IMG/VR virus record: IMGVR_UViG_3300026521_000571
Strand: one strand, 5' to 3'
DNA: 64,000 bases
Origin: a virus
Taxonomy: Duplodnaviria; Heunggongvirae; Uroviricota; Caudoviricetes
This document shows positions 16,954-52,615 of this stretch, piece by piece (the stretch's first letter is position 1; each line of letters starts with the position of its first letter). Both the position numbers and the translations under genes were made by a program. The notes below the pieces were generated by a model that was not told the origin of the DNA, did no database searches, and was given only the letters and a program-made list of their open reading frames with translations.

Positions 16954-17196
16954 ATTTTAATTCCTCCATATTCTACGAAAATATATAAGTCGGTAACCTC
17001 ACTGGTATTAAAGATTAACCGAGATAATCGCCCAGTGCAAATAAATATTTAATAATATAAAAGTTCAAAAATTATATTTTATATTTTAATATTTAAATAT
17101 CAACTTTAATAATTTCTAAAATTTAACTTTTTAAAGTTTTTTAAAAATCCACGGTTTTGGTTTATGCTTATTATATTATCCACGTGGCTGTAGTTT

Positions 17197-17445
17197 ATGG
17201 ACCAAAGATTAAAAATCAAATTGGAGAAAATAATGTCAAAAAGATTTAGTCATCTTCAAGATTTGGTATTAAATATAGAAGAAAGGAAAGATATTAAAAA
17301 GAGTTTCGAATATTCAAATAAACTTACAATTGAATCTTTCTATATTGATAAAGAATCTCGTGAAGAAATTACGGACATCTATGAGTTCGAAATAACTCCT
17401 CAGGAGTTATTTAAAATAGTTGAAGTCATGAAGACTTTTAAATAA
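17197..17445 (+). CDS. Hypothetical protein (82 aa)
   Basis: ORF. Confidence 0.45.
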   Translation: MDQRLKIKLEKIMSKRFSHLQDLVLNIEERKDIKKSFEYSNKLTIESFYIDKESREEITDIYEFEITPQELFKIVEVMKTFK

Positions 17446-17479
17446 TTAATTATACTACCCAAGTTCAAAGGATATTAAA

Positions 17480-17971
17480 ATGGAAAAAATCAATGCAGTA
17501 AACTTAAGTGGAATCTTTAAAACTGAGCAAGTTACACCAACATTCACAAAGCAAATTCTTGAAATGAATTCTAAAGATAGAGATGGACAATGGCGTCCAG
17601 CACATCTAGATATTTATATAAAAGATGATATTAAGCAAGCAGCTGGCCTTCAAGAAGGATCAGAAATTAAGGTTAAAGGTTGGATTGCATTTAATTTTGC
17701 TTCAGGTGGAAGAGCATTTCCTAAGGTAATAGTTACTGAAATCGAAGAAGTTGAATTAGCTTCTCCAGATAATCAGCAACCAACCCAACAACAAGCTGGA
17801 ATACCACCAATGCCAGGAATGCCTCCACAACCAATGGCCCCAAATACACCACCAGTACAACCTCTTGATTCAATGCCAGGAATGCCTCCACAACCAATGG
17901 CTCCAAATACACCACCTGTACAACCTGCACCAGGTATTCCAACACCTCCTGGAATGTCTACTCCATTCTAA
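17480..17971 (+). CDS. Hypothetical protein (163 aa) with a duplicated Pro-rich C-terminus (MPGMPPQPMAPNTPPVQP twice)
   Basis: ORF with AAGGA RBS; 54-bp coding repeat at about 17807..17862 and 17872..17928. Confidence 0.55.
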   Translation: MEKINAVNLSGIFKTEQVTPTFTKQILEMNSKDRDGQWRPAHLDIYIKDDIKQAAGLQEGSEIKVKGWIAFNFASGGRAFPKVIVTEIEEVELASPDNQQPTQQQAGIPPMPGMPPQPMAPNTPPVQPLDSMPGMPPQPMAPNTPPVQPAPGIPTPPGMSTPF

Positions 17972-17977
17972 GATTAA

Positions 17978-18001
17978 TTCTAAGCCATAACTGGCTTAGA
18001 A
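17978..18001 (+). terminator. Perfect 10-bp stem-loop (ttctaagcca-taact-ggcttagaa) after 17480..17971
   Basis: Seen directly. Confidence 0.5.
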
Positions 18002-18094
18002 TTAATCAAACCTCCACCTCCCATAATACATCACCCTTACTTTAAAAATCTTCGATATTTTCAACAAAATTAAAACAATATCGGAGAAAAATAA

Positions 18095-18670
18095 ATGACA
18101 ACTTATGAAATAGATGTTAAAGAGTTACATCAAAAACTTAATGATATTCAGAATTGCATTACTAATTTTACGAGGATAGAAATCCAAAGCAATGATTTTT
18201 ATCAAAAAATGGTAGAATTAAATAAAGAGAATCCAGAATATTATGGACTCGTTCAAGCAATGATTATGCTTTTTAGTAAAATGGAAACATCAAATAAACA
18301 ATTCCAAGAAAATGTTTATGATTATAGTGTTAAATGTTTAGATTTAAAAAAATATGCTTTGGATATAATATCTCAACAAGAAGAAGAAATTAAAAAATTG
18401 CGTTCTTCCGTGCCTAAAATAGAGTCAAAAAGAACTGAAATTAAATCAAAATCAGTTACCGGAGGATTCAAAACATTATTTTTAAAAGCATTTAATGATA
18501 ATCCTAAAGAATTTTTTAAAATAACATTATTATTTTCAACTATATTTTTATTTATTTTAATGATAGTGCTTGAAATATTTAAACCAAAAATAATTGATTC
18601 GAGTATTAATCACATAGATACAATTATAAAAACAGCTTATATAAAAGATATTAAAAAGGATGGAGAATAA
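18095..18670 (+). CDS. Hypothetical protein (191 aa) with a C-terminal TM helix
   Basis: ORF with GGAGAAAA RBS; hydrophobic segment LLFSTIFLFILMIVLEIF. Confidence 0.5.
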   Translation: MTTYEIDVKELHQKLNDIQNCITNFTRIEIQSNDFYQKMVELNKENPEYYGLVQAMIMLFSKMETSNKQFQENVYDYSVKCLDLKKYALDIISQQEEEIKKLRSSVPKIESKRTEIKSKSVTGGFKTLFLKAFNDNPKEFFKITLLFSTIFLFILMIVLEIFKPKIIDSSINHIDTIIKTAYIKDIKKDGE

Positions 18671-19409
18671 GATGGAGAATAATATATTTAAAAAAATTAA
18701 AAAAGTTATCCAGGGATTTATTAATAATGTTTATAATGAAGACCTAGTTGAAGAGAAACATATTCCAAAAACAACGCCCTTTGAACTCAGGCAAATATAT
18801 AGAGAAAATAGAGTTGATTGGAACTCTATCGAAACAATACATAACTATGATTCGGACAATGATTTTCATATATTAATTGCTGATGATAATCAAGGAGCAT
18901 TGGCATTGCTTGAAATAGATCTGGATATGTTAATGGGGACTAGTAAAATTGCCTCAGATAATAAAATAATTAAAAAAGAAGTAATTGAGTTAATAAGAAC
19001 TATAGAAAAAGAAAATATCTCCCTAGACTTTCTAAAGGTTGGTGGTGATTTTGCACCATATAGTATATATAAAAAACTAGAAGACGATTCAAATTTTAGA
19101 GTAGATTTTGCAGTAATTGATATCATATTTGGTGGTATTGTTTATAAAGATAATTCTCCTATAAAAATAGACGGAATTGATCTTGCGGCATATATCCTAG
19201 ATAAAAATCCAGAAGCAGTGATAATATTATTCACTGGGAGCAGTTTATCAAAAAATTCACTAGAGTATCAAAAGATTCATCAAAAACTTGGGGAATCTTT
19301 CTTTGATAATAATATCCAATTAAAGACCCCAAATTTTGATGAAAGATTAACGTTTTTTATAAAACATTTGAAAAAATCTTTGAATATATTTAAGAGGAGA
19401 TTTAAATGA
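18660..19409 (+). CDS. Putative receiver (REC)-like protein (249 aa), tentative
   Basis: HILIADDNQG (hhhhDD), AVIDIIFGG and IILFTGSS resemble REC beta1, beta3 and beta4 signatures but spacing is atypical; translationally coupled to the histidine kinase gene. Confidence 0.35.
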   Translation: MENKMENNIFKKIKKVIQGFINNVYNEDLVEEKHIPKTTPFELRQIYRENRVDWNSIETIHNYDSDNDFHILIADDNQGALALLEIDLDMLMGTSKIASDNKIIKKEVIELIRTIEKENISLDFLKVGGDFAPYSIYKKLEDDSNFRVDFAVIDIIFGGIVYKDNSPIKIDGIDLAAYILDKNPEAVIILFTGSSLSKNSLEYQKIHQKLGESFFDNNIQLKTPNFDERLTFFIKHLKKSLNIFKRRFK

Positions 19410-20644
19410 GTCTAGAAACACTCTTATCCCCTCTTAAAAAAAATAAGACGATATGTACTACTATTTTATTTTTTCTATTTACTTGTATAGTATTCGTCTT
19501 TTTCTGGTTTGGTGTTATAGAGTCAACAGCAACAACTCTACATTTTTTTAAAAATATTTTTAGTGAAACTCAAATAACTACAGGATTCAACCAAATTAAT
19601 TTAAACTCAGTCTTTGTGAATTTGGTATATCCCACTGAGACTAATCAAAATATATATCTTATTAATAATATATTCGATACAATTAGAGAGCATCCAATAA
19701 ATTATAAAATTTATATTGGATCAAAAGGTGAAAGTTATATTTTATTAGATAATAAATTCTATGAGATAAAGTTGACATCCAATTTTTGGATATGGACTGG
19801 GGTATTATTTATCCAAAATCCAATTTTTTATTTCATAATGACACGTTTATTAAACACACAAGAGTTAAATATTCGAACTGAACATATGATATCTGAGAAA
19901 ATAGACCAAGATTATCTAGCTGATAAAGTTGCACAAACGATGGGTGGTTACATCCATCATGAATTAAAGACACCACTCACAGCAATTGAAGCAATATCCA
20001 CAAAAAATAGATTAATTATTGATAAGTTAAATATTAATGATGACATCAAACAAGAGTTTCTAAATAACTGCAACTTATTGGAAAATAGCATAATGAATAT
20101 GTTTAATACAATAAATGCCGTCCAACAATTAAAAGCAATTGATGATAATGAAAATATTTCAATTTATGATATTATTGAAAGATCATTAAATATCTTTAAA
20201 TTAAGCTCTAATTATAAATTCATATATTTGGTTGATAAAGAACTCAAACGATGTCGCCCAGATAAACTCAATCCACATTTACTTTCGAATATAATAATAA
20301 ATCATGCAAAGAATTCACTCGAAGCCGATGCTAAAATTATAAAATTTGAATACAGTAATTTTTATATAAAGAATAATATAAAATTATTACATATGTATAT
20401 AATTGATGATGGTAAAGGTATTCCAAAGAATATATTAAAAACAGTATATGAATTAAAATTCACTACAAAAGAAAGTGGCACTGGTGTTGGATTATATATA
20501 TGCAAAGGTGTATTAAATCAGTTCGGTGGTGATGAAAATATCCAACAATCATCAAAGTACGGTACTGTCATTGATTTAGAAATACCAGTACTTGAGTGTA
20601 AAAGAACTGATACTGAAGTTGATAGTTTAAAAGGAGAAAAATAG
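19406..20644 (+). CDS. Membrane sensor histidine kinase (412 aa)
   Basis: Two TM segments flanking a ~100-aa extracytoplasmic region; H-box IHHELKTPLTAIEAIS; N-box NIIINHAKNSLEA; G1 IIDDGKGIP; G2 GTGVGLYICKGV. Confidence 0.7.
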   Translation: MSLETLLSPLKKNKTICTTILFFLFTCIVFVFFWFGVIESTATTLHFFKNIFSETQITTGFNQINLNSVFVNLVYPTETNQNIYLINNIFDTIREHPINYKIYIGSKGESYILLDNKFYEIKLTSNFWIWTGVLFIQNPIFYFIMTRLLNTQELNIRTEHMISEKIDQDYLADKVAQTMGGYIHHELKTPLTAIEAISTKNRLIIDKLNINDDIKQEFLNNCNLLENSIMNMFNTINAVQQLKAIDDNENISIYDIIERSLNIFKLSSNYKFIYLVDKELKRCRPDKLNPHLLSNIIINHAKNSLEADAKIIKFEYSNFYIKNNIKLLHMYIIDDGKGIPKNILKTVYELKFTTKESGTGVGLYICKGVLNQFGGDENIQQSSKYGTVIDLEIPVLECKRTDTEVDSLKGEK

Positions 20645-21091
20645 ATGTTAGATAGAAATACAATATTAACTTTAAATAAAGACCCGAAGAGTATTGATCT
20701 ACATAATCTGGCTCTAGCCAAATCAAAGGCCGCAAAATTAAATGCTGGATCAAGTCATCAATTTATTCAGGATAGAGATAGATCAAAAGGCTTTAAAAAT
20801 TATGATGAAGCCTATCAGAAGTATATTAAATTAAAAAACAGTGGATTTCTAGATTTATTTAATAAAAAACATGGGATTGGTACTAACACAAATCCTACTA
20901 TAAATCCAACTAAAAAAATAATAAAAGAGGTTTCTGAAAGTAGTTTAATTCATAAAATAGATAGTTTGATTGAAATGGCACCTATTGCTCCTTTTAATGG
21001 CCCAGGAGCAGGTCCGGATAGCTCATCTAAACAATTCATTTTAAAGGAAGAATATGCCAATAAGTCCAGCAAAAATAAAAAAACATCTTGA
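20645..21091 (+). CDS. Hypothetical protein (148 aa)
   Basis: ORF. Confidence 0.45.
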   Translation: MLDRNTILTLNKDPKSIDLHNLALAKSKAAKLNAGSSHQFIQDRDRSKGFKNYDEAYQKYIKLKNSGFLDLFNKKHGIGTNTNPTINPTKKIIKEVSESSLIHKIDSLIEMAPIAPFNGPGAGPDSSSKQFILKEEYANKSSKNKKTS

Positions 21092-21791
21092 TATAAAAGA
21101 AAATGAGGTAATTGCAAAAGAGAAATGTACTGTGACCATAGATCTTTCGGAATATAAAAATATTGAATCAGAGTACGGTGACGTAATTGATATTGAGGAA
21201 TCAGCTTCTGTTTATAAAATTCCAGGGTTTTTTAGAATCGAATTCGATTCTAATAATGCAATTGAATTCTTTTTCCCTTATAGTGTTTATTTAAATAAAA
21301 TGGAAAATACAATAGAGACCTCAAAAATGATTAAAGTTGAATATCAAGAGGGTGATATTATTTTCTATGCTAAATATAGAGAAGAAGAAACTGATGTTAG
21401 AATCCTGGATAAATTATTTGAGCACGGAGCAAAGTATTTAGCTGATAAACCAGATAAACTTGTTCAAAATATATGGACACAATTAAAACCAAGCTCAAAA
21501 GTCCCATTTCATCATATTGAATTAATAGTAAGTCAATTATATGGATTCTATGATGAAAAGAGTGGTACTTATAAACCATTAAGATTATCAAATTTAAAAT
21601 ACAGTAAAGATTATATTTTAAATACTAAACAATCAAGTCATCATTTAAATAGAGGAATGGGATTCTTGTATGGATATAGTAATGATTCATTAAGGACCTC
21701 AGTACAGAAAAAGAATGAGATAAATAATAATTTCTTCGAAAATATATTAAGTGGTGATTACGACAGACTTATAGAAAATTCAAAAAAATGA
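21054..21791 (+). CDS. Hypothetical protein (245 aa)
   Basis: ORF. Confidence 0.5.
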   Translation: MPISPAKIKKHLDIKENEVIAKEKCTVTIDLSEYKNIESEYGDVIDIEESASVYKIPGFFRIEFDSNNAIEFFFPYSVYLNKMENTIETSKMIKVEYQEGDIIFYAKYREEETDVRILDKLFEHGAKYLADKPDKLVQNIWTQLKPSSKVPFHHIELIVSQLYGFYDEKSGTYKPLRLSNLKYSKDYILNTKQSSHHLNRGMGFLYGYSNDSLRTSVQKKNEINNNFFENILSGDYDRLIENSKK

Positions 21792-21852
21792 TCAAAAAAA
21801 AATCAAGGGTGGAGTTCAAAAGAACCTCACCCTACCCTCTTGTGCTAAAAAT

Positions 21853-22936: not shown

Positions 22937-23446
22937 CTATCTTATTTTTAATTCAACCAAGGCTTCGTCTATCGCTTTACCCAATAGATTCTGTCCAAGC
23001 CATTTGGATTTATCAAAGATCCTATTATCAGACCAATGTAATCCAATCCCCCATACTTTATCATACGGGCTTGCTTCTACAAAGAGCCTTTCTCCAATTT
23101 GCTTCTCAAAAGCTTCAGAGAATTCTTTATCTTTAAAAATCTCACGAAATTTAAAAATATTGCCAGCTTTTACAATTTGGAATTTATGTTCATCCCATAT
23201 CGCTTCATCAAAGCCTTTGACTCTTCTACCGTACTCTTTTATCCTCGCTTGATTTGAGGACTCAAGAATTTTCTTAGCCATCTGATGATCTCCAGATAAC
23301 TGAGCTTTATGATACATCATATATTGCTCAGCTGAATTGAACTCAATACCGGAGGCCTCGAAACTAAATTTGAACCATTGTGAAAATGGCCCATTCCAGA
23401 AGAAAGCATACTCGATACTTCTTCTATTCACCAGTTGCAATTCCAT
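22937..23446 (-). CDS. NADAR (YbiA/DUF1768) family protein
   Basis: FFWNGPFSQWF ... FNSAEQYMMYHKA ... GRRVKGFDEAIWDE ... IVKAGNIFKF ... FVEASPYDKVWGIGL match the conserved NADAR blocks. Confidence 0.85.
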   Translation of the reverse strand: MELQLVNRRSIEYAFFWNGPFSQWFKFSFEASGIEFNSAEQYMMYHKAQLSGDHQMAKKILESSNQARIKEYGRRVKGFDEAIWDEHKFQIVKAGNIFKFREIFKDKEFSEAFEKQIGERLFVEASPYDKVWGIGLHWSDNRIFDKSKWLGQNLLGKAIDEALVELKIR

Positions 23447-24441: not shown

Positions 24442-25002
24442 ATGTCAACACAAAACAGCGCAGACACAGTATATGAATCAGTTCAAAATTATGTACGTCA
24501 TGATTTAAGTGAAAGTTTTACACCTTGGAGTGCTAAAGAACTCGAAGAAAAGAATAAAGAAGTCCGTTATAAATTTAGCTCAAGTAGTCTAAAAAAACTA
24601 GAAGGATTACATCCTGCTTTAGTGGATATTATTTTCGAGGTAGCCAACTCTATAGATTTGACAATAGTTTACGGATTAAGAACAGCTGAGGAGCAACATA
24701 AGTTATATCTAGCTGGAAGAAGTTCTAAAGATGGATATATTAAAAAATCTAGACATCAAAGTGGAAAAGCCGTTGATATATTGCCTCGACCAAGAGGTGT
24801 AAATATGTATAACTCAAAAGATAGAGATAATCCAACACGTTGGGCTTATTTTACAGGATTCTTCCAAGCAACAGCATTGGCTCTTGGATACGAAACTAGA
24901 GTTGGTTGGAAATGGAGAACAGATCCAATGGAAGTTCTAAAAAGACCTCTGAGAGAAAATAGCCTAGTTGATCCAAATCATTTCGAGATTTATATTAGGT
25001 AA
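24442..25002 (+). CDS. Peptidase M15 family endolysin (VanY / L-alanyl-D-glutamate peptidase-like)
   Basis: LRTAEEQHKLYLAG ... SRHQSGKAVDI metal-binding and catalytic motifs typical of M15 peptidoglycan hydrolases. Confidence 0.8.
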   Translation: MSTQNSADTVYESVQNYVRHDLSESFTPWSAKELEEKNKEVRYKFSSSSLKKLEGLHPALVDIIFEVANSIDLTIVYGLRTAEEQHKLYLAGRSSKDGYIKKSRHQSGKAVDILPRPRGVNMYNSKDRDNPTRWAYFTGFFQATALALGYETRVGWKWRTDPMEVLKRPLRENSLVDPNHFEIYIR

Positions 25003-25507: not shown

Positions 25508-26887
25508 ATGCACGGCTCTGATTTTGAAGAAAAATTGCCTCTGGCTGCTCTTCGGACAGTCGGAGCGGCTCTTGCCCTGAAAAAAATTAAAGATAGTGGG
25601 TATTTGACTGGGACGAAAAATTATTATCATGGAACATCGAAAGAAAGAGCAGAAGAAATTAAAAAGAATGGGTTACTTTCAAATAATCTTTTAAATAACC
25701 CGGATTCAATTAAAACAACTGCTACTTTAAATAAGGATGTCGCTGCAAAAAGTGATGATTATGTTTATCTAGCAAATGATAAATCAATAGCAGATGCTTT
25801 TGCAAATTCTTATGTTACTCCAACGAAACGAGCACCAGTTGGGCTTAATACTGAAAAATCACCTTATGGAGAAACACTCGTCGTTCCGATGTCGACTCAT
25901 AAAAAATTTAAGAGAAATCCAGAGACTGAAATGGGTTTCGATGAGTGGTATAAACTTAATTCACTTAATGTCCCTAAATTAGTAGCTAGACAACATTATA
26001 ATTCTATTAATGATGATACAGTTACGATAAAAGATAAGCTTGATCCTAAATATATTAAAGGATCTCCGGATTATAAAAGTCAAGCTTTTAAAAATTATAA
26101 AACTAACTGGGTAAAGGCGCCTGGAAAAGCAGCCCTTGCCCATCTTGGTGTGGCCGGCGTACTTGGAGGAACAGGATATTCAATGTATAGATTATTTGAA
26201 AACATAACAGTGATAAATAAAATTGATTCAATTATAGAGGAAGCTTCTTTTATTAATAAAGTAAAAAATTTCTTTTCTGGGTTCGCAATCCCTAAAAATA
26301 TTTTTAATAATTTATTAAAGAAAGCTAAAGTTAATGGTAGTCAATCTATTAAAAAAGAATTACAAGAGGCAAAGAGTCTTAGAAATATAAATGCCCCTGA
26401 GGTTCATGGGAAAGTAGATTATCAAGGCACATGTTATACCGGCGCTATGAAATTAATTGGTCTTAAAAATCTCGTTAGAAAATATCCGGATTTTTATAGT
26501 TTCTATCAAGCGTATACTAAAAAGACAAAGCCAATATATACAAAAGATCTTACAAAAAAAGAACTTGAATCTCTTCCGAAGGGTACTGTCATGGCAATAG
26601 TTAATAAAAGAGAGAGTCGATCAACAGTAAATACCGAATACAATAAAGAGCTTGGAATGATTCAAGAGACTCGTAAGATGATCGGTCATGTAATGATTTA
26701 TATGGGGAGAGATTCTAAGAAGAAAATAATTATTTTAGAGTTAAGTTATCCAAATGATGATAGAACCTTAAATGGTTCTGAACTTGAGTTGCAATTAGAT
26801 TTTGAAACAGATAGCTTTTTTAAAAGATACAATACTGATAAAAGAGATCTAGTTGTGTTTGACTATAGAGTTATGAAGACCCTTTAA
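25508..26887 (+). CDS. Hypothetical protein (459 aa) with a central hydrophobic segment
   Basis: Shares the ENITV(I/V)NKID(S/N)IIEEA peptide, and ~50 bp of DNA, with the N-terminus of the preceding gene. Confidence 0.55.
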   Translation: MHGSDFEEKLPLAALRTVGAALALKKIKDSGYLTGTKNYYHGTSKERAEEIKKNGLLSNNLLNNPDSIKTTATLNKDVAAKSDDYVYLANDKSIADAFANSYVTPTKRAPVGLNTEKSPYGETLVVPMSTHKKFKRNPETEMGFDEWYKLNSLNVPKLVARQHYNSINDDTVTIKDKLDPKYIKGSPDYKSQAFKNYKTNWVKAPGKAALAHLGVAGVLGGTGYSMYRLFENITVINKIDSIIEEASFINKVKNFFSGFAIPKNIFNNLLKKAKVNGSQSIKKELQEAKSLRNINAPEVHGKVDYQGTCYTGAMKLIGLKNLVRKYPDFYSFYQAYTKKTKPIYTKDLTKKELESLPKGTVMAIVNKRESRSTVNTEYNKELGMIQETRKMIGHVMIYMGRDSKKKIIILELSYPNDDRTLNGSELELQLDFETDSFFKRYNTDKRDLVVFDYRVMKTL

Positions 26888-29800
26888 GAAGGGTCTATCT
26901 GTTTAATAAAGACATAATTGCCTGCGTCGAATATTCTGCGGTAGTCGTTATTGAACATATTCTCAGCTTCAGTAAGTTTTGGATCAAAAACTTTAAGTTT
27001 ATCTTTAAGCTTATGTTTCTGAAAGCTAGCTCTATGCCATAACTGCTGAGGATTATCTGGATGGAAATAATAATAGTTCGGTGAACTTATATTTTTTAGG
27101 GAAAAGCCGAGTGTTTTATATAGATTACCATCAGACCATCGGCGATTCGCATAACTAACCAAGGCTACACTTTTATCCTTAGGTAGATTTCTTTCGAAAG
27201 CCTTAAATAATTTACTAGCAGCTCCTGGAACAGACCAGTCTTTTTTAACAGCGAATCTAATTAATTCATAAGCAAGTCCTTTATTCTTTTCGAACCTTGT
27301 TTTACCAAATGTCATAATTGCAATTAATTCCCCTTTGTATCTTAGACCATATCTAATTGGTCCGATAGCATCTCCACCTTGCAGATGGTTTTCATCAAGA
27401 AAATCTCTAGCTTCAGGTACTTCTACACAAACTGTACACTTTCTAGCAAATACTCTATTTTTCTGTTTATGCATTTTATTCTGAATAACACTAAACCAAA
27501 TATTTTTCTGACGATTATCTAAGAACTCATTTTCATTAATATTCAAAAGATGAATACCTTTAGCTTCGGCATCTTTTAATTTCGAAAGCATTTGATTTCT
27601 ATCTTTACCAGGCGTATTGAAAATACTATGCTTACTTATACCTTGGCTATGGAACATCAAACCGTTGTATTCAATAGCTAGATTATAATCAGGTAGATAT
27701 AAATCTAATTCCTTAGGTGGAATAACATCTCTTGGGTTTCTAATAATTCTAGCATCAGGATCTATTGATTTAATAAAATTATATATTTCATCTTCAGCGT
27801 AGCTGGATGTTCGCTTTTTGTAAGTAATATTATGCTGGCGTAATAATTTATAAGCAGTTGTTTCACTACAGTTGATGGTTTCCATCATCCTGATTAAATC
27901 TAGCTTATTGTCTTCTACAAAAGATTTTAAAAACTCTTCACTGGATGGATATTTATTTTCAATTTTAGCCTTAAAACTATTTGCTTGTTGATAGCTATCG
28001 GCTCCATAACGTTCTCGACAAGTATTTTTGGTTTTAGCTAATGTTTCAGGCAATTTGCTTTGTATGATTGCTTTAAAACTAGGTGTTTGTGGATAATAGT
28101 CTACTCCATAACGTTCGCGATTGGTTTCAATAACTTTTAATTTACATTCATCCGTTTGTGAATAATGTTCTACACCATAACGTTCGCGATTGGTTTTAAT
28201 AACTTTTAATTTACATTCATCCGTTTGTGAATAATTTTTAACACCATATTTTTTAAGGTTAGTAGCTTTGGCTTTTTCTTGATATTCAGGCAACCTTACT
28301 TTATAAACATCAGATTGTGTGTAATTTTTAGCACCGTATTTTTTAAGATTAGTCTCTTGAGATTTCTTAATTATTTCTGGCAGTCTAGTTTTAAAACTAA
28401 TAGATTGCATAAAATGTTCTACACCATAACGTTCGCGATTGGTTTTAATAACTTTTAATTTACATTCATCCGTTTGTGAATAATTTTTAACACCATATTT
28501 TTTAAGGTTAGTAGCTTGAGATTTCTTAATTATTTCTGGCAGTCTTAATTTATAAATATCTGATTGTGTATAATGATCGACACCATACTGCTCACGACAA
28601 GTTGCTTTAGTTTTAGCTATTATTTCAGGTTTTCTTGATTTATAATTAACAGATTGTGTATAATAATCTGTTCCGTAACGCTCTTGGTTAGTTTTAATGG
28701 TTTTAATTTTATATTCATCTGTTTGTGGATAATAGTCTACTCCATAACGTTCGCGATTGGTTTCAATAACTTTTAATTTACATTCATCCGTTTGTGAATA
28801 ACTTTTGACACCGTATCTTTCAAGGTTAGTTTTAAAAATCTGTTTAATTATTTCAGGTAACCTAGTTTTAAAACTAGTTGATTGCGTATAATAATCGGTC
28901 CCATAGCGTTCGCGATTAGTTGCTTTGGATTTTAATTTATATTCATCAGTTTGAGTATAATATTCTACGCCGTATCTTTCGAGGTTGGTTTTAATAATTC
29001 TTAATTTGCATTCATCTGTTTGTGAATAATAATCTGTCCCATATCGTTCGCGATTGGTCTTAATAGTTTTATTTCTATATTCTGGTAATTTAGATTTATA
29101 TTCATCGGATTGTGTAAAATAAGCTGCTCCATACAATTTGCGGTTGGTTTCAATAACTTTTAATTTACATTCATCCGTTTGTGAATAACTTTTCGCCCCG
29201 TATTTTTCTAGGTTGGTTTTAAAAGCCCGTTTAATTATTTCAGGTAGCCTAGTTTTAAAACTGGTTGATTGCATATAACTGTCAGTCCCATAACGCTCAA
29301 GACAAGTCATCTTCGATTTAATTTTAAACTCATCTGTTTGGAAATACCAATCAGCATTATAACGCTCACGATTAGTTTTAATAATTTTTTCTAAAATTTT
29401 GATAGAATTTTCTTTAATAAAATTTTTAAAAGCTTCAGTTTGTGAATAATGTTCTACACCATATCTTTCAAGGTTAGTTGCTTTCGCTTTCTCTTGGACT
29501 TCGGGCAGCATACTTGGGACAGCAACTCCATATGTCTCCAAAAAATAATTTTTAGTTTTTTCTTTAATTTCTTCGGATTGTGCTGCGTGACGTACACCAA
29601 AACGCTCCAAATTAGTCTGTTCCTGTTTTTCTTTAATTTCTTTTACTTGCAAAGCATGTCTTACACCGTATTTTTCTTCGAGAGAATCCTGTGCTTTATC
29701 TACAGTATATCTTCTCATATATTCAGTATGTTCTTGGTCTTTTTTACCGCAGGTATAATAGAATCTACTTCTTCCCTGCTCATAAAATCTTAAGTCACCA

Positions 29801-30072
29801 CAGACTGGACAAAAAGCATCATCACCAATTAAACCATTTCGAATAAATATTAATCTAGTATTATCATCAATATCTTCAGGTAAAAAATCAGTGTACTTTT
29901 TAATAGTGCTTTTGAAACCTAAATATTCTTCTTTTAATTTTTTTCGTCTAGGGCATTTAGCGAAACGCTTTGTTTTTGGATTATATACTTCAACTTCTTC
30001 TAGAAATTTTAAATACATATCTGGTTCAAGATATTTTATTCTAATATGTTCTTTTATATTCTCATCTTGCAT
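26884..30072 (-). CDS. Large tandem-repeat protein (1062 aa) with a C-terminal nuclease-like domain; putative homing-endonuclease-like protein
   Basis: N-terminal Cys pairs (CPRRKK, CPVCG ... TCGKKD); about 30 tandem 24..31-aa units (YSQTDECKLKVIETNRERYGV/DY); then LDLYLPDYNLAIEYNGLMFHSQG resembling the PD-(D/E)xK Vsr/DUF559-type core; conserved tail shared with 32033..33715. Confidence 0.75.
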   Translation of the reverse strand: MQDENIKEHIRIKYLEPDMYLKFLEEVEVYNPKTKRFAKCPRRKKLKEEYLGFKSTIKKYTDFLPEDIDDNTRLIFIRNGLIGDDAFCPVCGDLRFYEQGRSRFYYTCGKKDQEHTEYMRRYTVDKAQDSLEEKYGVRHALQVKEIKEKQEQTNLERFGVRHAAQSEEIKEKTKNYFLETYGVAVPSMLPEVQEKAKATNLERYGVEHYSQTEAFKNFIKENSIKILEKIIKTNRERYNADWYFQTDEFKIKSKMTCLERYGTDSYMQSTSFKTRLPEIIKRAFKTNLEKYGAKSYSQTDECKLKVIETNRKLYGAAYFTQSDEYKSKLPEYRNKTIKTNRERYGTDYYSQTDECKLRIIKTNLERYGVEYYTQTDEYKLKSKATNRERYGTDYYTQSTSFKTRLPEIIKQIFKTNLERYGVKSYSQTDECKLKVIETNRERYGVDYYPQTDEYKIKTIKTNQERYGTDYYTQSVNYKSRKPEIIAKTKATCREQYGVDHYTQSDIYKLRLPEIIKKSQATNLKKYGVKNYSQTDECKLKVIKTNRERYGVEHFMQSISFKTRLPEIIKKSQETNLKKYGAKNYTQSDVYKVRLPEYQEKAKATNLKKYGVKNYSQTDECKLKVIKTNRERYGVEHYSQTDECKLKVIETNRERYGVDYYPQTPSFKAIIQSKLPETLAKTKNTCRERYGADSYQQANSFKAKIENKYPSSEEFLKSFVEDNKLDLIRMMETINCSETTAYKLLRQHNITYKKRTSSYAEDEIYNFIKSIDPDARIIRNPRDVIPPKELDLYLPDYNLAIEYNGLMFHSQGISKHSIFNTPGKDRNQMLSKLKDAEAKGIHLLNINENEFLDNRQKNIWFSVIQNKMHKQKNRVFARKCTVCVEVPEARDFLDENHLQGGDAIGPIRYGLRYKGELIAIMTFGKTRFEKNKGLAYELIRFAVKKDWSVPGAASKLFKAFERNLPKDKSVALVSYANRRWSDGNLYKTLGFSLKNISSPNYYYFHPDNPQQLWHRASFQKHKLKDKLKVFDPKLTEAENMFNNDYRRIFDAGNYVFIKQIDPS

Positions 30073-30168: not shown

Positions 30169-31983
30169 ATGGCTCAATTGACCCACAATTTAAAAGGTTC
30201 CGGAGTTTTTGACAAACACGGAAATGAAATAGATATCGCGAGAGCTTATCTAATGTGTAAAATGTCACCGTTATTTTTTATAGAGAATTTCGTTATTATT
30301 GAGGTTGCTGGAGGTAAAATACCTATTAAAGAATCTGATTTATGGTATAGCACTCCGAAATATAGACAATTAATTCGAGGATTGCAAGAGTTTGACGCCG
30401 TTTCGTTTATGGCATCACGCCAGCACGGGAAAACTCAAACTGTGGCAGAATATTTGCTCTGGGCAATAATTTTCCACCCAGGTCTATTAATTGAGTACGT
30501 CACCTTAGATTCCAAGCGTGCTACTGACTTTATTAAACGTATAAAATTCATGCTCAAAGAATTACCTGATTGGCTTCGCGTTGATTTCAAAGGCAAATCA
30601 GAAAAAGTTACTTTTATTGAGCTTGAAAATGGCGCTAGAATTAACTCAAATTATGTTAGTGGTAGTATTGATCCTGATCGTCTTGGGCGTGGTATGTCAG
30701 CACCAATCATATACATTGATGAAACAGCTTTTATCCCAAAAATGGATATTGTCTGGGTAGCGATGCAACCAGCTATTTCAGCTGCAAGTAGATTTGCCAA
30801 GAAAAATGGATATCCAAATGGAATCATTTATACAACAACCCCAAATGGAGCTGGTGTAAATTTCTTTTATAATGTTTGGACCAGAGGCTGGGATAGCTCA
30901 GAATTATTCGAAGGCGATTCAATAAAAATTAGAGAAGACTGGCGTGATGTATTAGATTCAGACGATAATAAAAATAACTTCGTTAGGTTTAAAATTCACT
31001 GGTCTGAGACTAATAAAGATGAGAAATGGTATAAACAGCAAATTAAAGAATTGAACTTTAATATGAGAAAGGTTTCTCAAGAACTCGACCTGGTATTTCT
31101 TGGATCAAATAATGCTGTTTTCGACGATAGTATTCTTGAAGTTTTTACACCAAAAACAGTCAAAAGTGAACTTACATTGGCTTATGGAGAGAAGTTTAAT
31201 TTATTCGAAGATCTTGATCCAGAGAAAAAATACCTACTTGGGGTTGATACAGCAGCTTCAACTGCAGCTAAAAGCGACTATAGTGCTATGGTTTTGGTTG
31301 AAGCAGAGACTGGTCTTCAAGTTGGTGAATGGCATGGAAAATTCTCGATCGTAAAAAGATTTGCGCTGATGGTTAAATCAACGATCAGAGGACTTCATGA
31401 TATTCATGGATTGACAGATGATAGTTTAACAGTAATAATAGAAAGAAATAGTTTTGGATTAGGTGTTGTGGAAGATATTCTTTATTCGGATGAAGATTTC
31501 GATTATCCAGGTTATATGTACTGGACACAATTAAAACATGATAAAGTTCCTGGAATGCAGACTGACGCCAAACGTCGTGAGAAAATGTTTAATTTACTAT
31601 TGAGTATAATTAATGAAAATCCAAAATTAGCTCAAGGTGTTTTATTACAAGAAGAACTTCGAAATTTAGAGCAGAAACCGAATGGAAGATTTGAGGCGAC
31701 GACCGGAGCACATGATGACGTCGTGCTTTCATACAACTTCTGTCTTTTCGTCCGCGACGAGATGATCAAAGATGGATTAATTACACTAGATGGGAGTTTC
31801 AATAAACTCAATGCTGAACGTATAAATTATTATTTAGATGTAAGTATGAATAGTGTTGATCTCTTGAAAGATCGAAGAAAAAATAAAGAAGAATTAGAGA
31901 TAATCATTATAGATAACGATCATGAAGAGCGGCGCCAAGAAATGGACCAATTTGATTTCTGTAATAATATTATTATGCTTTAG
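30169..31983 (+). CDS. terL: Terminase large subunit (T4 gp17-like ATPase plus nuclease)
   Basis: Walker A SRQHGKTQT; Walker B IIYIDETAF; RNaseH-like nuclease motifs LGVDTAASTA and AHDDVVLSYNF; 604 aa. Confidence 0.9.
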   Translation: MAQLTHNLKGSGVFDKHGNEIDIARAYLMCKMSPLFFIENFVIIEVAGGKIPIKESDLWYSTPKYRQLIRGLQEFDAVSFMASRQHGKTQTVAEYLLWAIIFHPGLLIEYVTLDSKRATDFIKRIKFMLKELPDWLRVDFKGKSEKVTFIELENGARINSNYVSGSIDPDRLGRGMSAPIIYIDETAFIPKMDIVWVAMQPAISAASRFAKKNGYPNGIIYTTTPNGAGVNFFYNVWTRGWDSSELFEGDSIKIREDWRDVLDSDDNKNNFVRFKIHWSETNKDEKWYKQQIKELNFNMRKVSQELDLVFLGSNNAVFDDSILEVFTPKTVKSELTLAYGEKFNLFEDLDPEKKYLLGVDTAASTAAKSDYSAMVLVEAETGLQVGEWHGKFSIVKRFALMVKSTIRGLHDIHGLTDDSLTVIIERNSFGLGVVEDILYSDEDFDYPGYMYWTQLKHDKVPGMQTDAKRREKMFNLLLSIINENPKLAQGVLLQEELRNLEQKPNGRFEATTGAHDDVVLSYNFCLFVRDEMIKDGLITLDGSFNKLNAERINYYLDVSMNSVDLLKDRRKNKEELEIIIIDNDHEERRQEMDQFDFCNNIIML

Positions 31984-32032
31984 TGTTTCTAAATACTACT
32001 ATATAAAATTTAAATTAAAAAGGTTTTATTTT

Positions 32033-33715
32033 ATGGAAAACGATATGTTAGAAAAGTACGATAAATTTATTAAAAAATATAGTTCATTAGGAATAATAAA
32101 TTTTAAAGGGATTCGAGGGAAATCAAAAGCGAATAAAAATCAAAAAAAATTAATACATGAAGCGGAAGATGAATTGTGGAAGCTGACAGATTTTGCACCT
32201 GAAAATTACACCACTAAAGATAGAATGCAATTGATACGTGCCAAAATAACTTCTGAAAATTTTAAATGCCCAGTGTGTTCTAAACCCAGAATTAAATCAA
32301 ATGGGATGAATAAATTTTCAATTACTTGTGGTAAAAAAGATAAAGAACATGTAGAATATGCAAAAAAAGTTTTAAGCGATAGATTAAGAAAACCTAAAAA
32401 ATGTCCAGTTTGCGGGATAATGCATAATAATCGAAGTAAAGCCCAACTATGTGGTCTGATTGATGATGAGCATAAACATCATGCTATATCCTACCAGCAA
32501 TCAAAATATAAAAACACATTAATGGAAAAATATGGTGTCGAAAATGTCTCACAATTGGAAACTACTAAAGAAAAAAAGAAGAAAAAATTTCTAGAAAAAT
32601 ATGGTGTTGAAAACCCATCTCAATTGCATTTTAATCTAGATAATTTTAAAAATCTGAATAAAGAATTTATAGAAAATAATTTTATTATTGATGGCAAATA
32701 TGTTGATTTTGAAAAAATGGAGGAATATCTTGGTTGCTCAATTGTTAAAGTAAAATCAGTTCTTAAAGAGTTTGGTATAAAATATAAAAGACGTATCGGA
32801 GTGAGTAAACCTGAAAAAGAAATTTTAGATTTCATTAAAACAATAGATCCAGATGTTAGAGTTATTATGAATTCAAAGACCATTATTCCGCCTAAAGAAT
32901 TGGATTTATATCTACCTGATTATAATCTAGCTATTGAATACAATGGCTTGATGTTCCATAGCCAAGGTGTAAGTAAACACCGTATTTTCAATACTCCTCT
33001 AAGAAATCGTAATGAATTTTTAATAAAGACTAAAGTTTGTGAAAAAAAAGGAATACAGCTTTTACATATCAATGAAAATGAATGGTTAGATGATAAATTA
33101 AATATAATATGGAAATCAGTAATTAGAAATAAATTAAGAAAGAATACAATAAGTATAGGTGCTAGAAAATGTTTTCTTAGAAAACTAGTAACAGATGAAG
33201 ATCTAAAATTAAGCGCTAATTTTTTTTATGAAAACCATCTGCAAGGTGCAGGTGCTTTGGGTTCAATAAGGTATGGTTTATTTTATGAAGGCGAATTAAT
33301 ATCATGTATGACATTTGGTAAGACTAGATTTAGAAGAGGAGCATATGAATTAATAAGATTTGCTAATAAAATAAATTATAGTGTTCCAGGAGCGGCTAGT
33401 AAACTTTTAAAAGCATTCAGACAAGACCATAGCACAATTATTGTGAGTTATGCCAATCGCCGATGGTCTGATGGTAATTTATATAAAACACTTGGATTTA
33501 AATTAGAAGGAATTTCGAGTCCAAATTACTATTATTTTCATCAAAAAAATAAATTTAAGCTATGGCATAGAGCTAGCTTCCAGAAACATAAGCTTAAAGA
33601 TAAACTTAAAGTTTTTGATCCAAAGCTTACTGAAGCTGAGAATATGTTCAATAACGGCTTCCGTAGAATATTCGATGCAGGCAATTATGTCTTCATCTTA
33701 GAGGAGAAGGGTTAG
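32033..33715 (+). CDS. Paralog of 26884..30072: short-repeat version with the same C-terminal nuclease-like domain and tail
   Basis: Zn-ribbon-like CPVCS ... TCGKKDKEH and CPVCG ... CG; two EKYGVEN repeat units; LDLYLPDYNLAIEYNGLMFHSQG identical to the paralog; 3' ~130 bp about 95% identical at DNA level; start chosen at ATG 32033 to avoid overlapping terL. Confidence 0.7.
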   Translation: MENDMLEKYDKFIKKYSSLGIINFKGIRGKSKANKNQKKLIHEAEDELWKLTDFAPENYTTKDRMQLIRAKITSENFKCPVCSKPRIKSNGMNKFSITCGKKDKEHVEYAKKVLSDRLRKPKKCPVCGIMHNNRSKAQLCGLIDDEHKHHAISYQQSKYKNTLMEKYGVENVSQLETTKEKKKKKFLEKYGVENPSQLHFNLDNFKNLNKEFIENNFIIDGKYVDFEKMEEYLGCSIVKVKSVLKEFGIKYKRRIGVSKPEKEILDFIKTIDPDVRVIMNSKTIIPPKELDLYLPDYNLAIEYNGLMFHSQGVSKHRIFNTPLRNRNEFLIKTKVCEKKGIQLLHINENEWLDDKLNIIWKSVIRNKLRKNTISIGARKCFLRKLVTDEDLKLSANFFYENHLQGAGALGSIRYGLFYEGELISCMTFGKTRFRRGAYELIRFANKINYSVPGAASKLLKAFRQDHSTIIVSYANRRWSDGNLYKTLGFKLEGISSPNYYYFHQKNKFKLWHRASFQKHKLKDKLKVFDPKLTEAENMFNNGFRRIFDAGNYVFILEEKG

Positions 33716-35013: not shown

Positions 35014-35325
35014 CTATGAGAGATCTTTAAAGATCTCTTTCATTTTTGCTTGAGTTTCCTCAAGTTGCTTGACTTTATCTTTTACTTTTTTACGACCTTT
35101 CTTTGTACTAATGTTACGCCCAACAACATCTTCAGGTTTAATATCCATTTTCTTAGCTGTTTTTTTAGCAAATTTAGCTAGATCTTTTAAGGTTGCATCC
35201 TCTGAAAGAATTCCACCTTTTTTATAAGCTTCTAAAAAACCAACCATAGCGACAGTTGTTTCAGCTATAAAATTTGCAGCATCCGGAACATTCACCAACA
35301 TTTGACCTTTTTCTATTGTAATCAT
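35014..35325 (-). CDS. Hypothetical basic protein (103 aa)
   Basis: ORF, start coupled to the Pnkp-like gene stop. Confidence 0.5.
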   Translation of the reverse strand: MITIEKGQMLVNVPDAANFIAETTVAMVGFLEAYKKGGILSEDATLKDLAKFAKKTAKKMDIKPEDVVGRNISTKKGRKKVKDKVKQLEETQAKMKEIFKDLS

Positions 35326-37829
35326 TTTTCTTCCTTTAAAATTTTAATTATTTTTCTTCTTAGTGTCGGAACATCTAGATTGTGTTCACCATTTTCGTGA
35401 ATCTGTTTCAATGCCTCAAGAACCTTAAATTCTTCAGCAATATGTAGTGATTTTTTGACCAGTATCTCTTTCTCTTTGGTGAATCCTCCTTTTTTTTGAT
35501 TCAAGTAATATTTATTAACTTTGTGTTCGATTCCTCTTACTCTTTTCCAAAAACTATACCAAGGTGTTTTTAATTTAAACATTATTGGTGATTGACCATC
35601 GTTTGTGTTATCTTCGAACACAAAGCCTTCAAAGCCATCGTCAATAAATAATGGTTGTCTTTTATACTGGTTTATAAAAGCACTTAAATCCAATGAATTG
35701 TGTAGTTTATCTACGATTTCTTTTACAGGTGCGCCTATATAAACACTATTAAAATCCAATAAACCTTCGTAACTCATTTTTTTGAAGTTCAATTCATTAT
35801 AGATAATATCTAATAGAATCGCTTGCCCTTCAGGATACCCAACGATATGTGGATCTTTGACCGGATCAATAATTTCAAATACCAATGTAGCATTGAGTTC
35901 TTGCAATTTTATTAAAAGATTCGGAGTCAAGAAATCTTTCGTATGTTCTCGAACCATATCTGGATAATCACCTTTTATAGTACTTTTGCTTGCGAAGAAC
36001 CATTTGCCATTTCTAACAGATACTAAACCGAGAAAACCATTAGGTTTATCGAACACGCTAACTGGATAGTTTAAGCTTTCAAAATCAGCTGGTGTTAATC
36101 CCATTCGCTCATTGAGGTTAAAGAATTTATTATAACCACGGGCCACTATTTCGATCGGATTGTTTTGAGTTAAAAATAAACCTCTAGCTCTTAAAGTTAT
36201 ATCCGACCAGTGGCCTTTTTGAAAGACAGATGATTTAAAATTTACACTTTCGATTTTTTCATCACCTTCTTCAAAATATAATTCTTTGCATACAGTTCCT
36301 TGATCAGTTTTGAGTTCTTCTAGAACCTTTTGATGTTCTTCTTCTGGAATTATGTCGACAGCGAAAGCCGCACTTTTTTTAAGACGTCGAGTTCTTAAAC
36401 ACTCTTTTGTCTTTTCTGTCGGCTCTTGATTGATAATCCTTATGTTTGAGTTATTTATAACACAAGCTCGAATACCAATGCTAACATCACCATTTAAGTT
36501 GATTAATGGAAAAGTATCCATAGCCTCTTTATTCTCTGGATTTCTATGGCCCGAGAATTGGATGACATTTTGAGTCCTCTCTTTGAATACATTGGCTATT
36601 TCATATATGTCTTCATATACTCCAATTCCATTTATAAGTTCATTAGCTGGTGTCACAAGATTTGGAACACTCGGAGTTCCGGTGTGGTTCGAGTACAAAT
36701 GAACTCTTTTACCTTGAAATATAAAAGAAGAGATTCTATAAGGAACCATTTTTCGCCAGATTTTCATAAGATCATTTCTAGTTATATGACTCAACATTAG
36801 AATCAACATTGATCTTCTTGCACTAAATCTAATGTTTTTTACATCTGTTGCTGTTGCACTATCAACATTTATAAATTCTTTCTTTTTGAAAAGAGTCCAA
36901 AATAACTCATAACGCAATTCTTTTAAAAGATCTTCATCCAGAATTCTATGAAGTTTATCAATATCTCTATACGCTGCAATCTTGCCGAATCCTTTTTGCT
37001 CCAAGAAAATATTGATATGAGGGAGAGCTGCTTTATATAAACTCTTAAAATATATCATAGAGCCTTCGTGATTGCCTTGAATCAATTGACAATTATGATT
37101 ATCAATCAAATCTAAAAGAATTGTTGCTGTTTCAACAATACTCTTTGCGCTTGGACCTCGATCAAAATAATCACCGAGGAATGTTATATTTTTAGGGGCT
37201 TCATTAGATTCCCAATCAACACCAGCTGCCTTTAGAGTTAATTTTAACTCATCAGCACAACCATGAATATCACCAATATATATTTTCTCATGGGTTTCAG
37301 TTTCATCAAAAGCAGTTCCAGAGAACTCATTAGCAAATTCATGTGGTTTTATTACTGAGTACCAATTTGGATGTTCAATCAATTGACTTCTATACCATAG
37401 GGTTTCAATTCGATCATTTGGAACTTTATTGATTGTCCGGTGCCCGTTTCTTTCAAGAAGAGTTTCTAAAGACACATCAGTAAAATCAATACACTTGATT
37501 TGATATCTATGCTCTTCTTTATATTTTTTATAAATTCTTATCGCAGCCTCACGAGTGTGTGTTGCATCAACTACAATCATTTCACCATTTTTAGCTTTCT
37601 GATCTATAATTTTAAAAACCATTTCCCAAACGAGTTCTTCTGAACTCATTGCGTACCGGCGACTTGCGTCAACCTGTTGCTCTGGGAAATTTATCATTTT
37701 CCTAATGTTATCAGGACTCACAACACAGTGTTGCAAAATATCACTACCAAAAATATCTTGTGATGTTTTTTCAATTAATGTTGTTTTTCCTGCGCCAGGA
37801 GCTCCCAGCATAAAATATAAAACTCTCAT
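35322..37829 (-). CDS. Pnkp-like trifunctional RNA repair enzyme: polynucleotide kinase, calcineurin-type phosphatase and a C-terminal RNA-ligase-like adenylyltransferase
   Basis: N-terminal P-loop MLGAPGAGKTT; central GDIHG, GDYFDRG and GNHEG metallophosphatase motifs; C-terminal KxNG lysine motif (FDKPNGFLG) in a ~380-aa domain; order and size (835 aa) mirror bacterial Pnkp. Confidence 0.75.
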   Translation of the reverse strand: MRVLYFMLGAPGAGKTTLIEKTSQDIFGSDILQHCVVSPDNIRKMINFPEQQVDASRRYAMSSEELVWEMVFKIIDQKAKNGEMIVVDATHTREAAIRIYKKYKEEHRYQIKCIDFTDVSLETLLERNGHRTINKVPNDRIETLWYRSQLIEHPNWYSVIKPHEFANEFSGTAFDETETHEKIYIGDIHGCADELKLTLKAAGVDWESNEAPKNITFLGDYFDRGPSAKSIVETATILLDLIDNHNCQLIQGNHEGSMIYFKSLYKAALPHINIFLEQKGFGKIAAYRDIDKLHRILDEDLLKELRYELFWTLFKKKEFINVDSATATDVKNIRFSARRSMLILMLSHITRNDLMKIWRKMVPYRISSFIFQGKRVHLYSNHTGTPSVPNLVTPANELINGIGVYEDIYEIANVFKERTQNVIQFSGHRNPENKEAMDTFPLINLNGDVSIGIRACVINNSNIRIINQEPTEKTKECLRTRRLKKSAAFAVDIIPEEEHQKVLEELKTDQGTVCKELYFEEGDEKIESVNFKSSVFQKGHWSDITLRARGLFLTQNNPIEIVARGYNKFFNLNERMGLTPADFESLNYPVSVFDKPNGFLGLVSVRNGKWFFASKSTIKGDYPDMVREHTKDFLTPNLLIKLQELNATLVFEIIDPVKDPHIVGYPEGQAILLDIIYNELNFKKMSYEGLLDFNSVYIGAPVKEIVDKLHNSLDLSAFINQYKRQPLFIDDGFEGFVFEDNTNDGQSPIMFKLKTPWYSFWKRVRGIEHKVNKYYLNQKKGGFTKEKEILVKKSLHIAEEFKVLEALKQIHENGEHNLDVPTLRRKIIKILKEEK

Positions 37830-52322: not shown

Positions 52323-52615
52323 AAACGATTATAATATTTTTTAGTATTTTATCTATTGGATTTTTAACTGGTTGTCAAGAGAAAGTGGTTTATATTTATC
52401 CGGAATACCCAAAGACAAAAATTATTCCTAGGATTAAATCTGTCCCAATTAAAGTAAATAAAGATGGTTGTATTGATTATAAAAGTACACCGAAGGTTTT
52501 TAAATTAATTAAACAACTTAGAGTTAAAGAAAACTATAGTGATAAAGCACTCAAACGATTGAATGAATTCAGTGCCGAAATATCCAATAAGAATAAGAAT
52601 AAGGAGACGAAGTGA
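52319..52615 (+). CDS. Putative lipoprotein (98 aa)
   Basis: Signal peptide with lipobox LTGC (MKTIIIFFSILSIGFLTGCQE). Confidence 0.55.
   Translation: MKTIIIFFSILSIGFLTGCQEKVVYIYPEYPKTKIIPRIKSVPIKVNKDGCIDYKSTPKVFKLIKQLRVKENYSDKALKRLNEFSAEISNKNKNKETK

Follow-up and report, generated by a model that had tools for sequence, protein, structure and literature searches.

We describe a signalling module in the DNA of a large uncultured tailed phage (Caudoviricetes) recorded as IMG/VR virus record IMGVR_UViG_3300026521_000571, of which the window, that is, the whole stretch analysed, comprises 64,000 nucleotides (nt). Three genes of the window encode a protein with a single transmembrane (TM) pass, a single-domain receiver (REC) protein and a histidine kinase with two TM passes, and we consider it likely that these genes are co-transcribed and constitute a self-contained module borne by the phage. 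The kinase and a receiver-like gene upstream of it had been proposed in a first-pass annotation made from the sequence alone, and the present analysis adds the membrane protein as the first gene of the set. Below, U denotes 18660..19409 and K denotes 19406..20644, and residues of the U product are numbered on its version of 249 amino acids (aa).

18095..18670, + strand: one-pass membrane protein, 191 aa, first gene of the module
18660..19409, + strand: divergent single-domain receiver protein (predicted), 249 aa
19406..20644, + strand: transmembrane sensor histidine kinase (predicted), 412 aa

As judged from its sequence and its AlphaFold model, the product of K is a membrane sensor histidine kinase. 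Its layout consists of TM1, a beta-rich external loop and TM2, which leads into a signalling helix; after this come the DHp hairpin (aa 170-244) and, at aa 253-398, the domain that binds ATP. The features are as follows.

19457..19519, + strand: TM1, aa 18-38, mean hydropathy 2.83
19520..19783, + strand: extracytoplasmic loop, aa 39-126, a putative small beta-rich sensor domain
19784..19840, + strand: TM2, aa 127-145, of weak hydropathy here
19955..19978, + strand: H-box HHELKTPL, aa 184-191, with H185 as the predicted phospho-histidine
20288..20326, + strand: N-box NIIINHAKNSLEA, aa 295-307, with N299 and N303 invariant
20399..20497, + strand: G1 box (D334-x-G336-x-G338), TTK motif (K355) and G2 box (G360-x-G362), invariant in homologue alignments

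The H-box, N-box, G1 and G2 motifs that the first-pass annotation had read in this gene are all in place and intact, G1 being IIDDGKGIP (aa 332-340) and G2 GTGVGLY (aa 358-364), and the agreement is well outside what chance would produce. The same annotation expected the protein to pass the profile thresholds of both kinase domains, and this holds for the ATPase domain, where the Pfam HATPase_c model, with its cut-off at 26.4 bits, scores 52.6 over aa 291-395 (E 7e-14); the outcome for HisKA is taken up below. NCBIfam histidine-kinase models cover the protein from the H-box through to the end of the ATPase domain (aa 177-398), with AtoS matching aa 183-398 (E 3.8e-18) and KinD spanning aa 177-395, and a profile of seven kinase relatives matches the PDB chains of FixL, ZraS and HK853. 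The fold agrees with these assignments. In the AlphaFold model (pLDDT 71.6), two DHp helices (aa 170-207 and 212-244) are followed by an alpha/beta domain (aa 253-398), and the top 50 PDB matches retrieved with this model by Foldseek are histidine kinases (DHp-CA) without exception.

Across ten divergent homologues, H185, E186 and P190 are invariant and position 189 is always T or S. The neighbouring H184 varies among homologues, which identifies H185 as the predicted acceptor. N299, N303, D334, G336, G338, K355, G360 and G362 are likewise invariant among homologues that share 20-40% identity, the most distant in the kinase alignment being at 23%, and a residue-level alignment to FixL places the TTK motif (K355) as FixL-like. 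E186 and T189 form an E-x-x-T motif; the H-E-x-x-T motif of HisKA kinases is associated with phosphatase activity. On the evidence of alignments and model, we conclude that the kinase is real and under selection.

Two TM helices enclosing a loop of ~100 aa had been read in the kinase at first pass. The helices stand, TM1 being strong and TM2 weak in the window but aligned with a strong TM2 in all nine other homologues and contained in a model helix that runs from 125 to 167; the loop is shorter than first given, at about 88 aa. A Lys-rich N-terminus (K11, K12, K14) precedes TM1, which by the positive-inside rule suggests an N-in topology. The beta-rich part of the loop occupies aa 60-123 of the AlphaFold model, with strands at 71-74, 83-86, 100-105, 110-114 and 117-123 and a block-mean pLDDT of about 53-86, mostly 69-81.

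We further note two cysteine motifs among the kinase homologues (loci are given as L numbers with coordinates). Most homologues carry a Cys-rich insert of ~35 aa (CxxC...C) between the DHp helices (P0009-P0012, L007:2298-3641, L008:7347-8891, L009:7584-8855 and L091:10659-11966), which could serve metal binding or cytoplasmic redox sensing and is missing from the window kinase and its nearest relatives. A C-x4-C motif in the external loop (e.g. LCILSDC, LCRISNC) is common to distant kinases (L007:2298-3641, L091:10659-11966, L092:6389-7690 and L094:7579-8811), and the window clade is without it.

The product of U is, as far as sequence profiles and fold prediction can tell, a genuine receiver. 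Gene callers place its start at ATG 18672 (245 aa, P0001), with a GGAG 8 nt upstream, and 245 aa is probably its actual length. The DD, D and T blocks that had first called a REC domain to mind are present as D75-D76, D154 and T192, and K222 is found in addition.

18882..18887, + strand: D75-D76, acidic pair after beta1 at the metal-binding position, conserved in 10/10 distant loci
19119..19121, + strand: D154, end of beta3, predicted phospho-acceptor, invariant in 67 relatives and in 10/10 loci
19233..19235, + strand: T192, end of beta4, T or S in 10/10 loci
19323..19325, + strand: K222, just after beta5, in at least 90% of 67 relatives and in 10/10 loci

Among the 67 relatives D76 is invariant and D75 is kept in at least 90%, and the five active-site positions are retained together across ten loci whose overall identity is ~20%. 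The predicted fold gives these positions their context. The AlphaFold model, built on an alignment of five relatives (pLDDT 81, pTM 0.73), shows a REC fold over aa 66-249, in which two elements, a helix (102-117) and a hairpin (160-169), are inserted into a canonical (beta-alpha)5 flavodoxin-like order: beta1 69-74, alpha1 78-91, the extra helix, beta2 122-127 and alpha2 132-142 in the first half, and beta3 150-154, the extra hairpin, alpha3 172-182, beta4 187-192, alpha4 201-210, beta5 219-221 and alpha5 226-248 in the second. All of the top 50 PDB matches retrieved with this model by Foldseek are REC domains (probability 1.0, TM-score to target 0.6-0.72), and the model contains no output domain. 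The first-pass annotation had likened the protein to a REC domain without output and had proposed a fold prediction as the test, which here comes out in its favour.

Sequence profiles of the receiver family point the same way in that they match receivers only, the profile of 67 relatives reaching the REC chain 3cu5 in the PDB (8.6e-5). A comparison by hhalign of the 67-member profile with a single E. coli CheY sequence aligned beta1-alpha1 alone (E 0.025) and paired D75-D76 with CheY D12-D13; the receiver insertions account for its breaking off there. The N-terminal ~65 aa of the receiver hold a basic amphipathic helix (aa 2-25) and the segment TTPFELRQ (aa 38-45), the latter conserved in the close lineage. 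In one subfamily (L092:5695-6396 and L094:5815-6573; e.g. CLESCGFGFFCNGCGLIQNC) this extension is Cys-rich and so differs from the amphipathic helix found in the window. Searches of Pfam, PHROGs, NCBIfam and PADLOC assigned the window receiver to no family.

The receiver and the kinase are closely linked. The TGA stop of the receiver gene overlaps the ATG of the kinase gene (ATGA), the overlap that had been reported at first pass, and the start codon of the kinase has an AGGAG 8 nt upstream of it. Each of the two genes occurs once in the window. In all 20 loci that extend far enough, a kinase homologue lies 3' of the receiver homologue on the same strand; the two are adjacent or overlapping in 16 loci, ~70-100 nt apart in L097 and L099, and ~0.5-1 kb apart in L094, L098 and L102. 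The same gene order recurs on independent assemblies from several samples, and over ten loci the pairwise identities of the receivers and of the kinases are correlated (Pearson 0.90, Spearman 0.60). These comparisons support the view that receiver and kinase are a cognate pair. As a separate observation, two genes stand between receiver and kinase genes on the 194-kb viral contig (L094:6600-7557), one of which codes for a protein of 198 aa that is hydrophobic at either end and may be a further, periplasmic partner.

This linkage bears on the hijacking of a host response regulator, an explanation raised at first pass. Here the kinase would mainly phosphorylate or dephosphorylate the regulator of the host, and the receiver would be a phosphate sink, a buffer or an insulator. 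Such a take-over would suit a receiver without an output domain, a kinase whose E-x-x-T motif is associated with phosphatase activity, and the ordinary character of the nearest cellular kinases, at 18-28% identity. Strict co-inheritance, correlated divergence and overlapping frames are, however, the traits of a cognate pair, and the presence of the module in very different phage backbones, which presumably have different hosts, fits a self-contained system better. Because the receiver is so strictly linked to the kinase, a self-contained pair is likelier than the hijacking of a host regulator, which we regard as unlikely.

Several observations weigh against reading the genes as a phage-owned pathway from histidine to aspartate. 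The kinase misses the Pfam HisKA cut-off (15.3 bits against 26.9), with only the H-box region (aa 182-195) aligning, so that, taken formally, one half of the condition set at first pass for a refutation applies, and HisKA is recorded in none of its close relatives; the window receiver has no match to Pfam Response_reg even at E <= 1, and 9 of its 67 relatives match that model weakly (E <= 0.01, best 1.3e-5). With both cut-offs unmet, both domains must be regarded as divergent. The external loop of the kinase (~88 aa) has no match to any family or ligand-binding domain in Pfam. After beta5 the receiver has K-x-P in place of the usual K-P, with P224 not conserved, and in the model its two insertions lie near the active-site face, where they could alter the chemistry. 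No member came up in two pattern scans of 185,579 prokaryotic genomes, one per species, but the second was swamped by generic kinases (mostly of Bacteroidales, 18-28% identical to the window kinase), and because of this saturation the absence from cellular genomes is a qualified one. A link to the timing of lysis is hinted at by the gene content of just two loci, L007 with its lysozyme and spanin-like genes and the window with its endolysin-like gene.

Some of these points would be expected of a pseudo-receiver that has kept the fold without being phosphorylated and that supports the kinase or the membrane protein structurally or regulates one of them: the missing Response_reg match, the helix (102-117) and hairpin (160-169) that flank the active-site face, and the K-x-P sequence. 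Pseudo-receivers usually lose part of the catalytic positions, whereas here all five are kept at about 20% identity. We give a pseudo-receiver a lower chance than a take-over of host regulation, and a receiver phosphorylated by its own kinase remains the reading that we prefer.

The third member of the proposed module is the 191-aa membrane protein, which has a helical, coiled-coil-like N-terminal region, a TM helix at aa 143-161 and a tail of ~30 aa, and for which no family was found in Pfam, PHROGs, NCBIfam and PADLOC. At the first 12 loci the receiver gene is preceded by a gene for a protein of 100-210 aa with one TM near its C-terminus. An iterative search identified homologues of the 191-aa protein in eight of these 12 loci (W, L001, L002, L005, L008 and L092-L094) with no off-target match among 637 open reading frames (ORFs), and six more loci from metagenomes have a homologue too, which brings the count to at least 14 loci altogether.

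Two genes that follow the kinase gene bear on the 3' limit of the module.

20645..21791, + strand: two co-oriented downstream genes, encoding 148 aa and 245 aa

According to the ORF list, these and the three module genes make up five closely packed + strand genes within 18095-21791; no terminator-like site was found on the + strand inside this interval, and a promoter scan gave fewer sigma-70-like sites than shuffled sequences. Genes for the 148-aa and 245-aa proteins are present in L001, L002, L004, L005 and L006 and do not follow the kinase gene in L007-L009, L091, L092 or L094. Since they are limited to the close lineage, they probably lie outside the module, which accordingly comprises three genes. 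Neither of the two proteins has a match in Pfam, PHROGs, NCBIfam or PADLOC. None of the five proteins encoded by the module and these neighbours matches a PADLOC defence model at E <= 0.01, and a defence system was rejected as the identity of the module.

An exhaustive profile search gathered the receiver family into 159 clusters at 50% identity, with proteins of about 90-285 aa, most of them 190-285 aa; the few shorter sequences are probably fragments. The named sources of the retrieved members are JGI, Logan and ENA, and never NCBI or UniRef. One sequence that JGI names 'CheY-like' (P0216) was considered as an independent canonical receiver and rejected, being a fragment of a receiver-family member. 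All module loci have a G+C content (GC) of 23-36% and lie on contigs from metagenomes or IMG/VR, the IMG/VR contigs measuring 22, 37, 107, 194 and 273 kb, and the genes near the module relatives include those for an RNA polymerase beta'-like protein, NAD ligase, RtcB, SmpB, SAM lyase, lysozyme and DnaB. The three-gene set has been seen on phage-like contigs alone.

The first-pass annotation had looked to related phages and to their hosts for homologues of the kinase. Homologues were found on related phage-like contigs, and not in deposited phage genomes or in the scans of species genomes. A tblastn search of the receiver against deposited phage genomes (INPHARED, 50,697) gave nothing at E <= 1, and the same search with the kinase gave five matches, all to generic kinases. 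The best of these, MT836032, was rejected as a relative; it proved to be a GC-rich pair of the ordinary OmpR/EnvZ type, which lies on a phage scaffold marked 'unverified' (L010) and is unlike the module. In one locus, the 22-kb IMG/VR contig L007, a phage lysozyme gene and two spanin-like genes stand directly 5' of the module (L007:97-5354), and a gene for a full methyl-accepting chemotaxis protein (dCache-HAMP-MCPsignal) stands directly 3' of it.

The origin of the pair matters here, as metagenome assemblies can be chimeric and the two genes might be an ordinary bacterial two-component system, brought in as recent host cargo or by misassembly and thus no feature of the phage. The window encodes a ribonucleotide reductase, a T4-like large terminase, a fusion of Pnkp with RNA ligase and an endolysin-like gene, and relatives of the module stand beside phage genes on IMG/VR contigs, which bears out the phage origin assumed at first pass. 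The 26% GC at 18-20 kb is in line with the rest of the window (26-39%), the same gene order recurs on independent assemblies, no member was found in the 185,579 species genomes (the second of the two scans being saturated), and the OmpR/EnvZ-type pair of L010 looks different. Host contamination was rejected, and we consider an origin outside the phage very improbable. What is known of conservation and linkage agrees less well with any of the three alternatives (host take-over, pseudo-receiver and host cargo) than with a histidine-to-aspartate pathway owned by the phage.

Beyond the genes already named, the window carries a tail-fibre-family gene and a NADAR gene, and no tRNA gene was found in it. 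A virulent lifestyle is plausible for this phage. The terminase shares just 24-26% identity with T4-like and cyanophage terminases, and a near-identity DNA search with 17000-22000 found no match among deposited phage genomes. The following features were recorded around the module.

17480..17971, + strand: 163-aa protein, just before the membrane-protein gene and two genes 5' of the receiver gene
22937..23446, - strand: NADAR / riboflavin-intermediate N-glycosidase family protein (TIGR02464, 5.9e-37)
24442..25002, + strand: endolysin-like gene (phrog_465, 5.8e-27), 3.8 kb downstream of the kinase gene
26884..30072, - strand: DUF7487-repeat protein, 1062 aa, labelled homing/HNH endonuclease in PHROGs
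30169..31983: large terminase gene, flanked by two DUF7487-repeat proteins
31922..33715, + strand: DUF7487-repeat protein, 597 aa, labelled homing/HNH endonuclease in PHROGs, overlapping the 3' end of the terminase gene
35322..37829, - strand: polynucleotide kinase/phosphatase and RNA ligase fusion, 835 aa (phrog_8238, 2.7e-114)
52612..53895, + strand: papain-family cysteine protease (Peptidase_C1)

The 163-aa protein has no family match in Pfam; it carries a proline/glutamine-rich C-terminal repeat, duplicated (PGMPPQPMAPNTPPVQP twice), and is kept beside the module in L002 at 57% identity. A Peptidase_C1 gene is also found near the module in L002 (L002:1612-2634). The nearest deposited relatives of the Pnkp-RNA ligase fusion belong to Staphylococcus phages, at ~30% identity. 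The NADAR family has been discussed as a jumbo-phage counter to defence based on NAD and ADP-ribose (PMC7824862).

The pair was compared with characterised systems. In CheA/CheY, KinA/Spo0F and DivJ-PleC/DivK, as here, the partner of a histidine kinase is a free-standing receiver in which the DD / D / T / K site is present and an output domain is absent, and output through protein contacts or a relay would likewise be expected of the phage module. The pair described here differs in that phages encode it and the scans of cellular genomes showed no member, and in its linkage to a small one-pass membrane protein; its receiver also differs from CheY-type receivers in being too divergent for Response_reg and in having two insertions and an N-terminal extension of ~65 aa. 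The kinase finds its best sequence and fold matches in the FixL / ZraS / AtoS / NtrB group, with which it shares an HE(L)xxPL H-box and the FxTTK..G.G.GL pattern, and it has the two-TM, periplasmic-sensing architecture of ZraS/EnvZ-type kinases. In contrast to this group, its DHp domain falls below the HisKA cut-off, it has neither HAMP nor PAS, its loop of ~88 aa is beta-rich and uncharacterised, and most of its relatives have a Cys-rich insert in the DHp hairpin loop, which the window kinase lacks.

Small membrane proteins that modulate a kinase are familiar from LiaF-LiaSR, YycHI-WalK and MzrA-EnvZ. The phage module resembles these in encoding a small membrane protein together with a kinase-regulator pair, and differs in that its small protein has no sequence similarity to theirs and has its bulk N-terminal, probably in the cytoplasm.

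Among viruses, a divergent receiver that keeps its catalytic aspartates has been described in jumbo phages as cREC (PF20274), which reportedly is never found alongside histidine kinases and is tied to NAD/ADP-ribose systems (Iyer et al., 2021; PMC7824862). The receiver described here is similar in having a divergent receiver fold in large phages but differs in being always linked to a kinase. Its membership in cREC was rejected, as it has no match to cREC_REC in Pfam and its linkage to a kinase is constant; a separate cREC gene is present elsewhere on L091. Pelagiphages are on record as having kinases in front of curli genes (PMC9599517) and Alteromonas phage V22 as having a CheY-like gene (PMC7289586), and BFVD matches include hybrid kinases from giant viruses, Ectocarpus virus EsV-1 among them. 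Two-component sensing had been called rare in phages at first pass; with isolated kinase and receiver genes noted before, rare is the right word and unprecedented would not be. These earlier viral genes are orphans or hybrid kinases listed as auxiliary, for none of which has a conserved linkage of membrane kinase, receiver and membrane partner been described, and no description of a linked phage kinase-receiver module was found in the literature, within incomplete coverage.

The analysis shows the identities of the domains, the intact catalytic residues, the strict linkage of the genes and their occurrence on phage-like contigs alone; what we infer, in the following scheme, is phosphotransfer, signal and output and what the third protein does. 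The external domain of the kinase (aa 39-126) would detect a cue in the infected cell, be it periplasmic, from the envelope or external, upon which the kinase would autophosphorylate on His185. The phosphoryl group would then move from His185 to Asp154 of the receiver, the most likely mechanism, and the H-E-x-x-T motif suggests that the kinase may also remove it. As it lacks an output domain, the receiver would act through protein contacts, like CheY, Spo0F and DivK, and its target could be the membrane protein encoded beside it or some other protein of the phage or the host. The output may adjust a decision of the phage, for which the timing of lysis or of development is one candidate. More tentatively, the module may stand for phage-specific transmembrane signalling in diverse large, low-GC, probably lytic phages, by which the virus would read an extracellular or periplasmic cue during infection (such as superinfection, envelope state, host density or nutrients) and retune its own programme, for example the timing of lysis, independently of host regulators. 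It would then be the equivalent, built on transfer from histidine to aspartate, of lysis inhibition or of the systems by which phages communicate; we hold this wider reading to be possible rather than probable.

A few routes are known by which phages sense their surroundings, namely repressor cleavage, arbitrium peptides, captured quorum-sensing receptors and, in T4, lysis inhibition. If the proposed scheme is true, the phage's own complete His-Asp pathway would be an additional route, and the hypothesis is directly testable through transfer from His185 to Asp154. The receiver family is not recognised by Pfam, PHROGs and NCBIfam, and as the genes of the module now stand as 'hypothetical' in metagenomic phage genomes, its recognition would improve their annotation. 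The module is conserved across many unrelated large phage genomes and was not found in the cellular genomes scanned, and the phages that carry it are suggested to sense conditions outside the cytoplasm of the cell that they infect.

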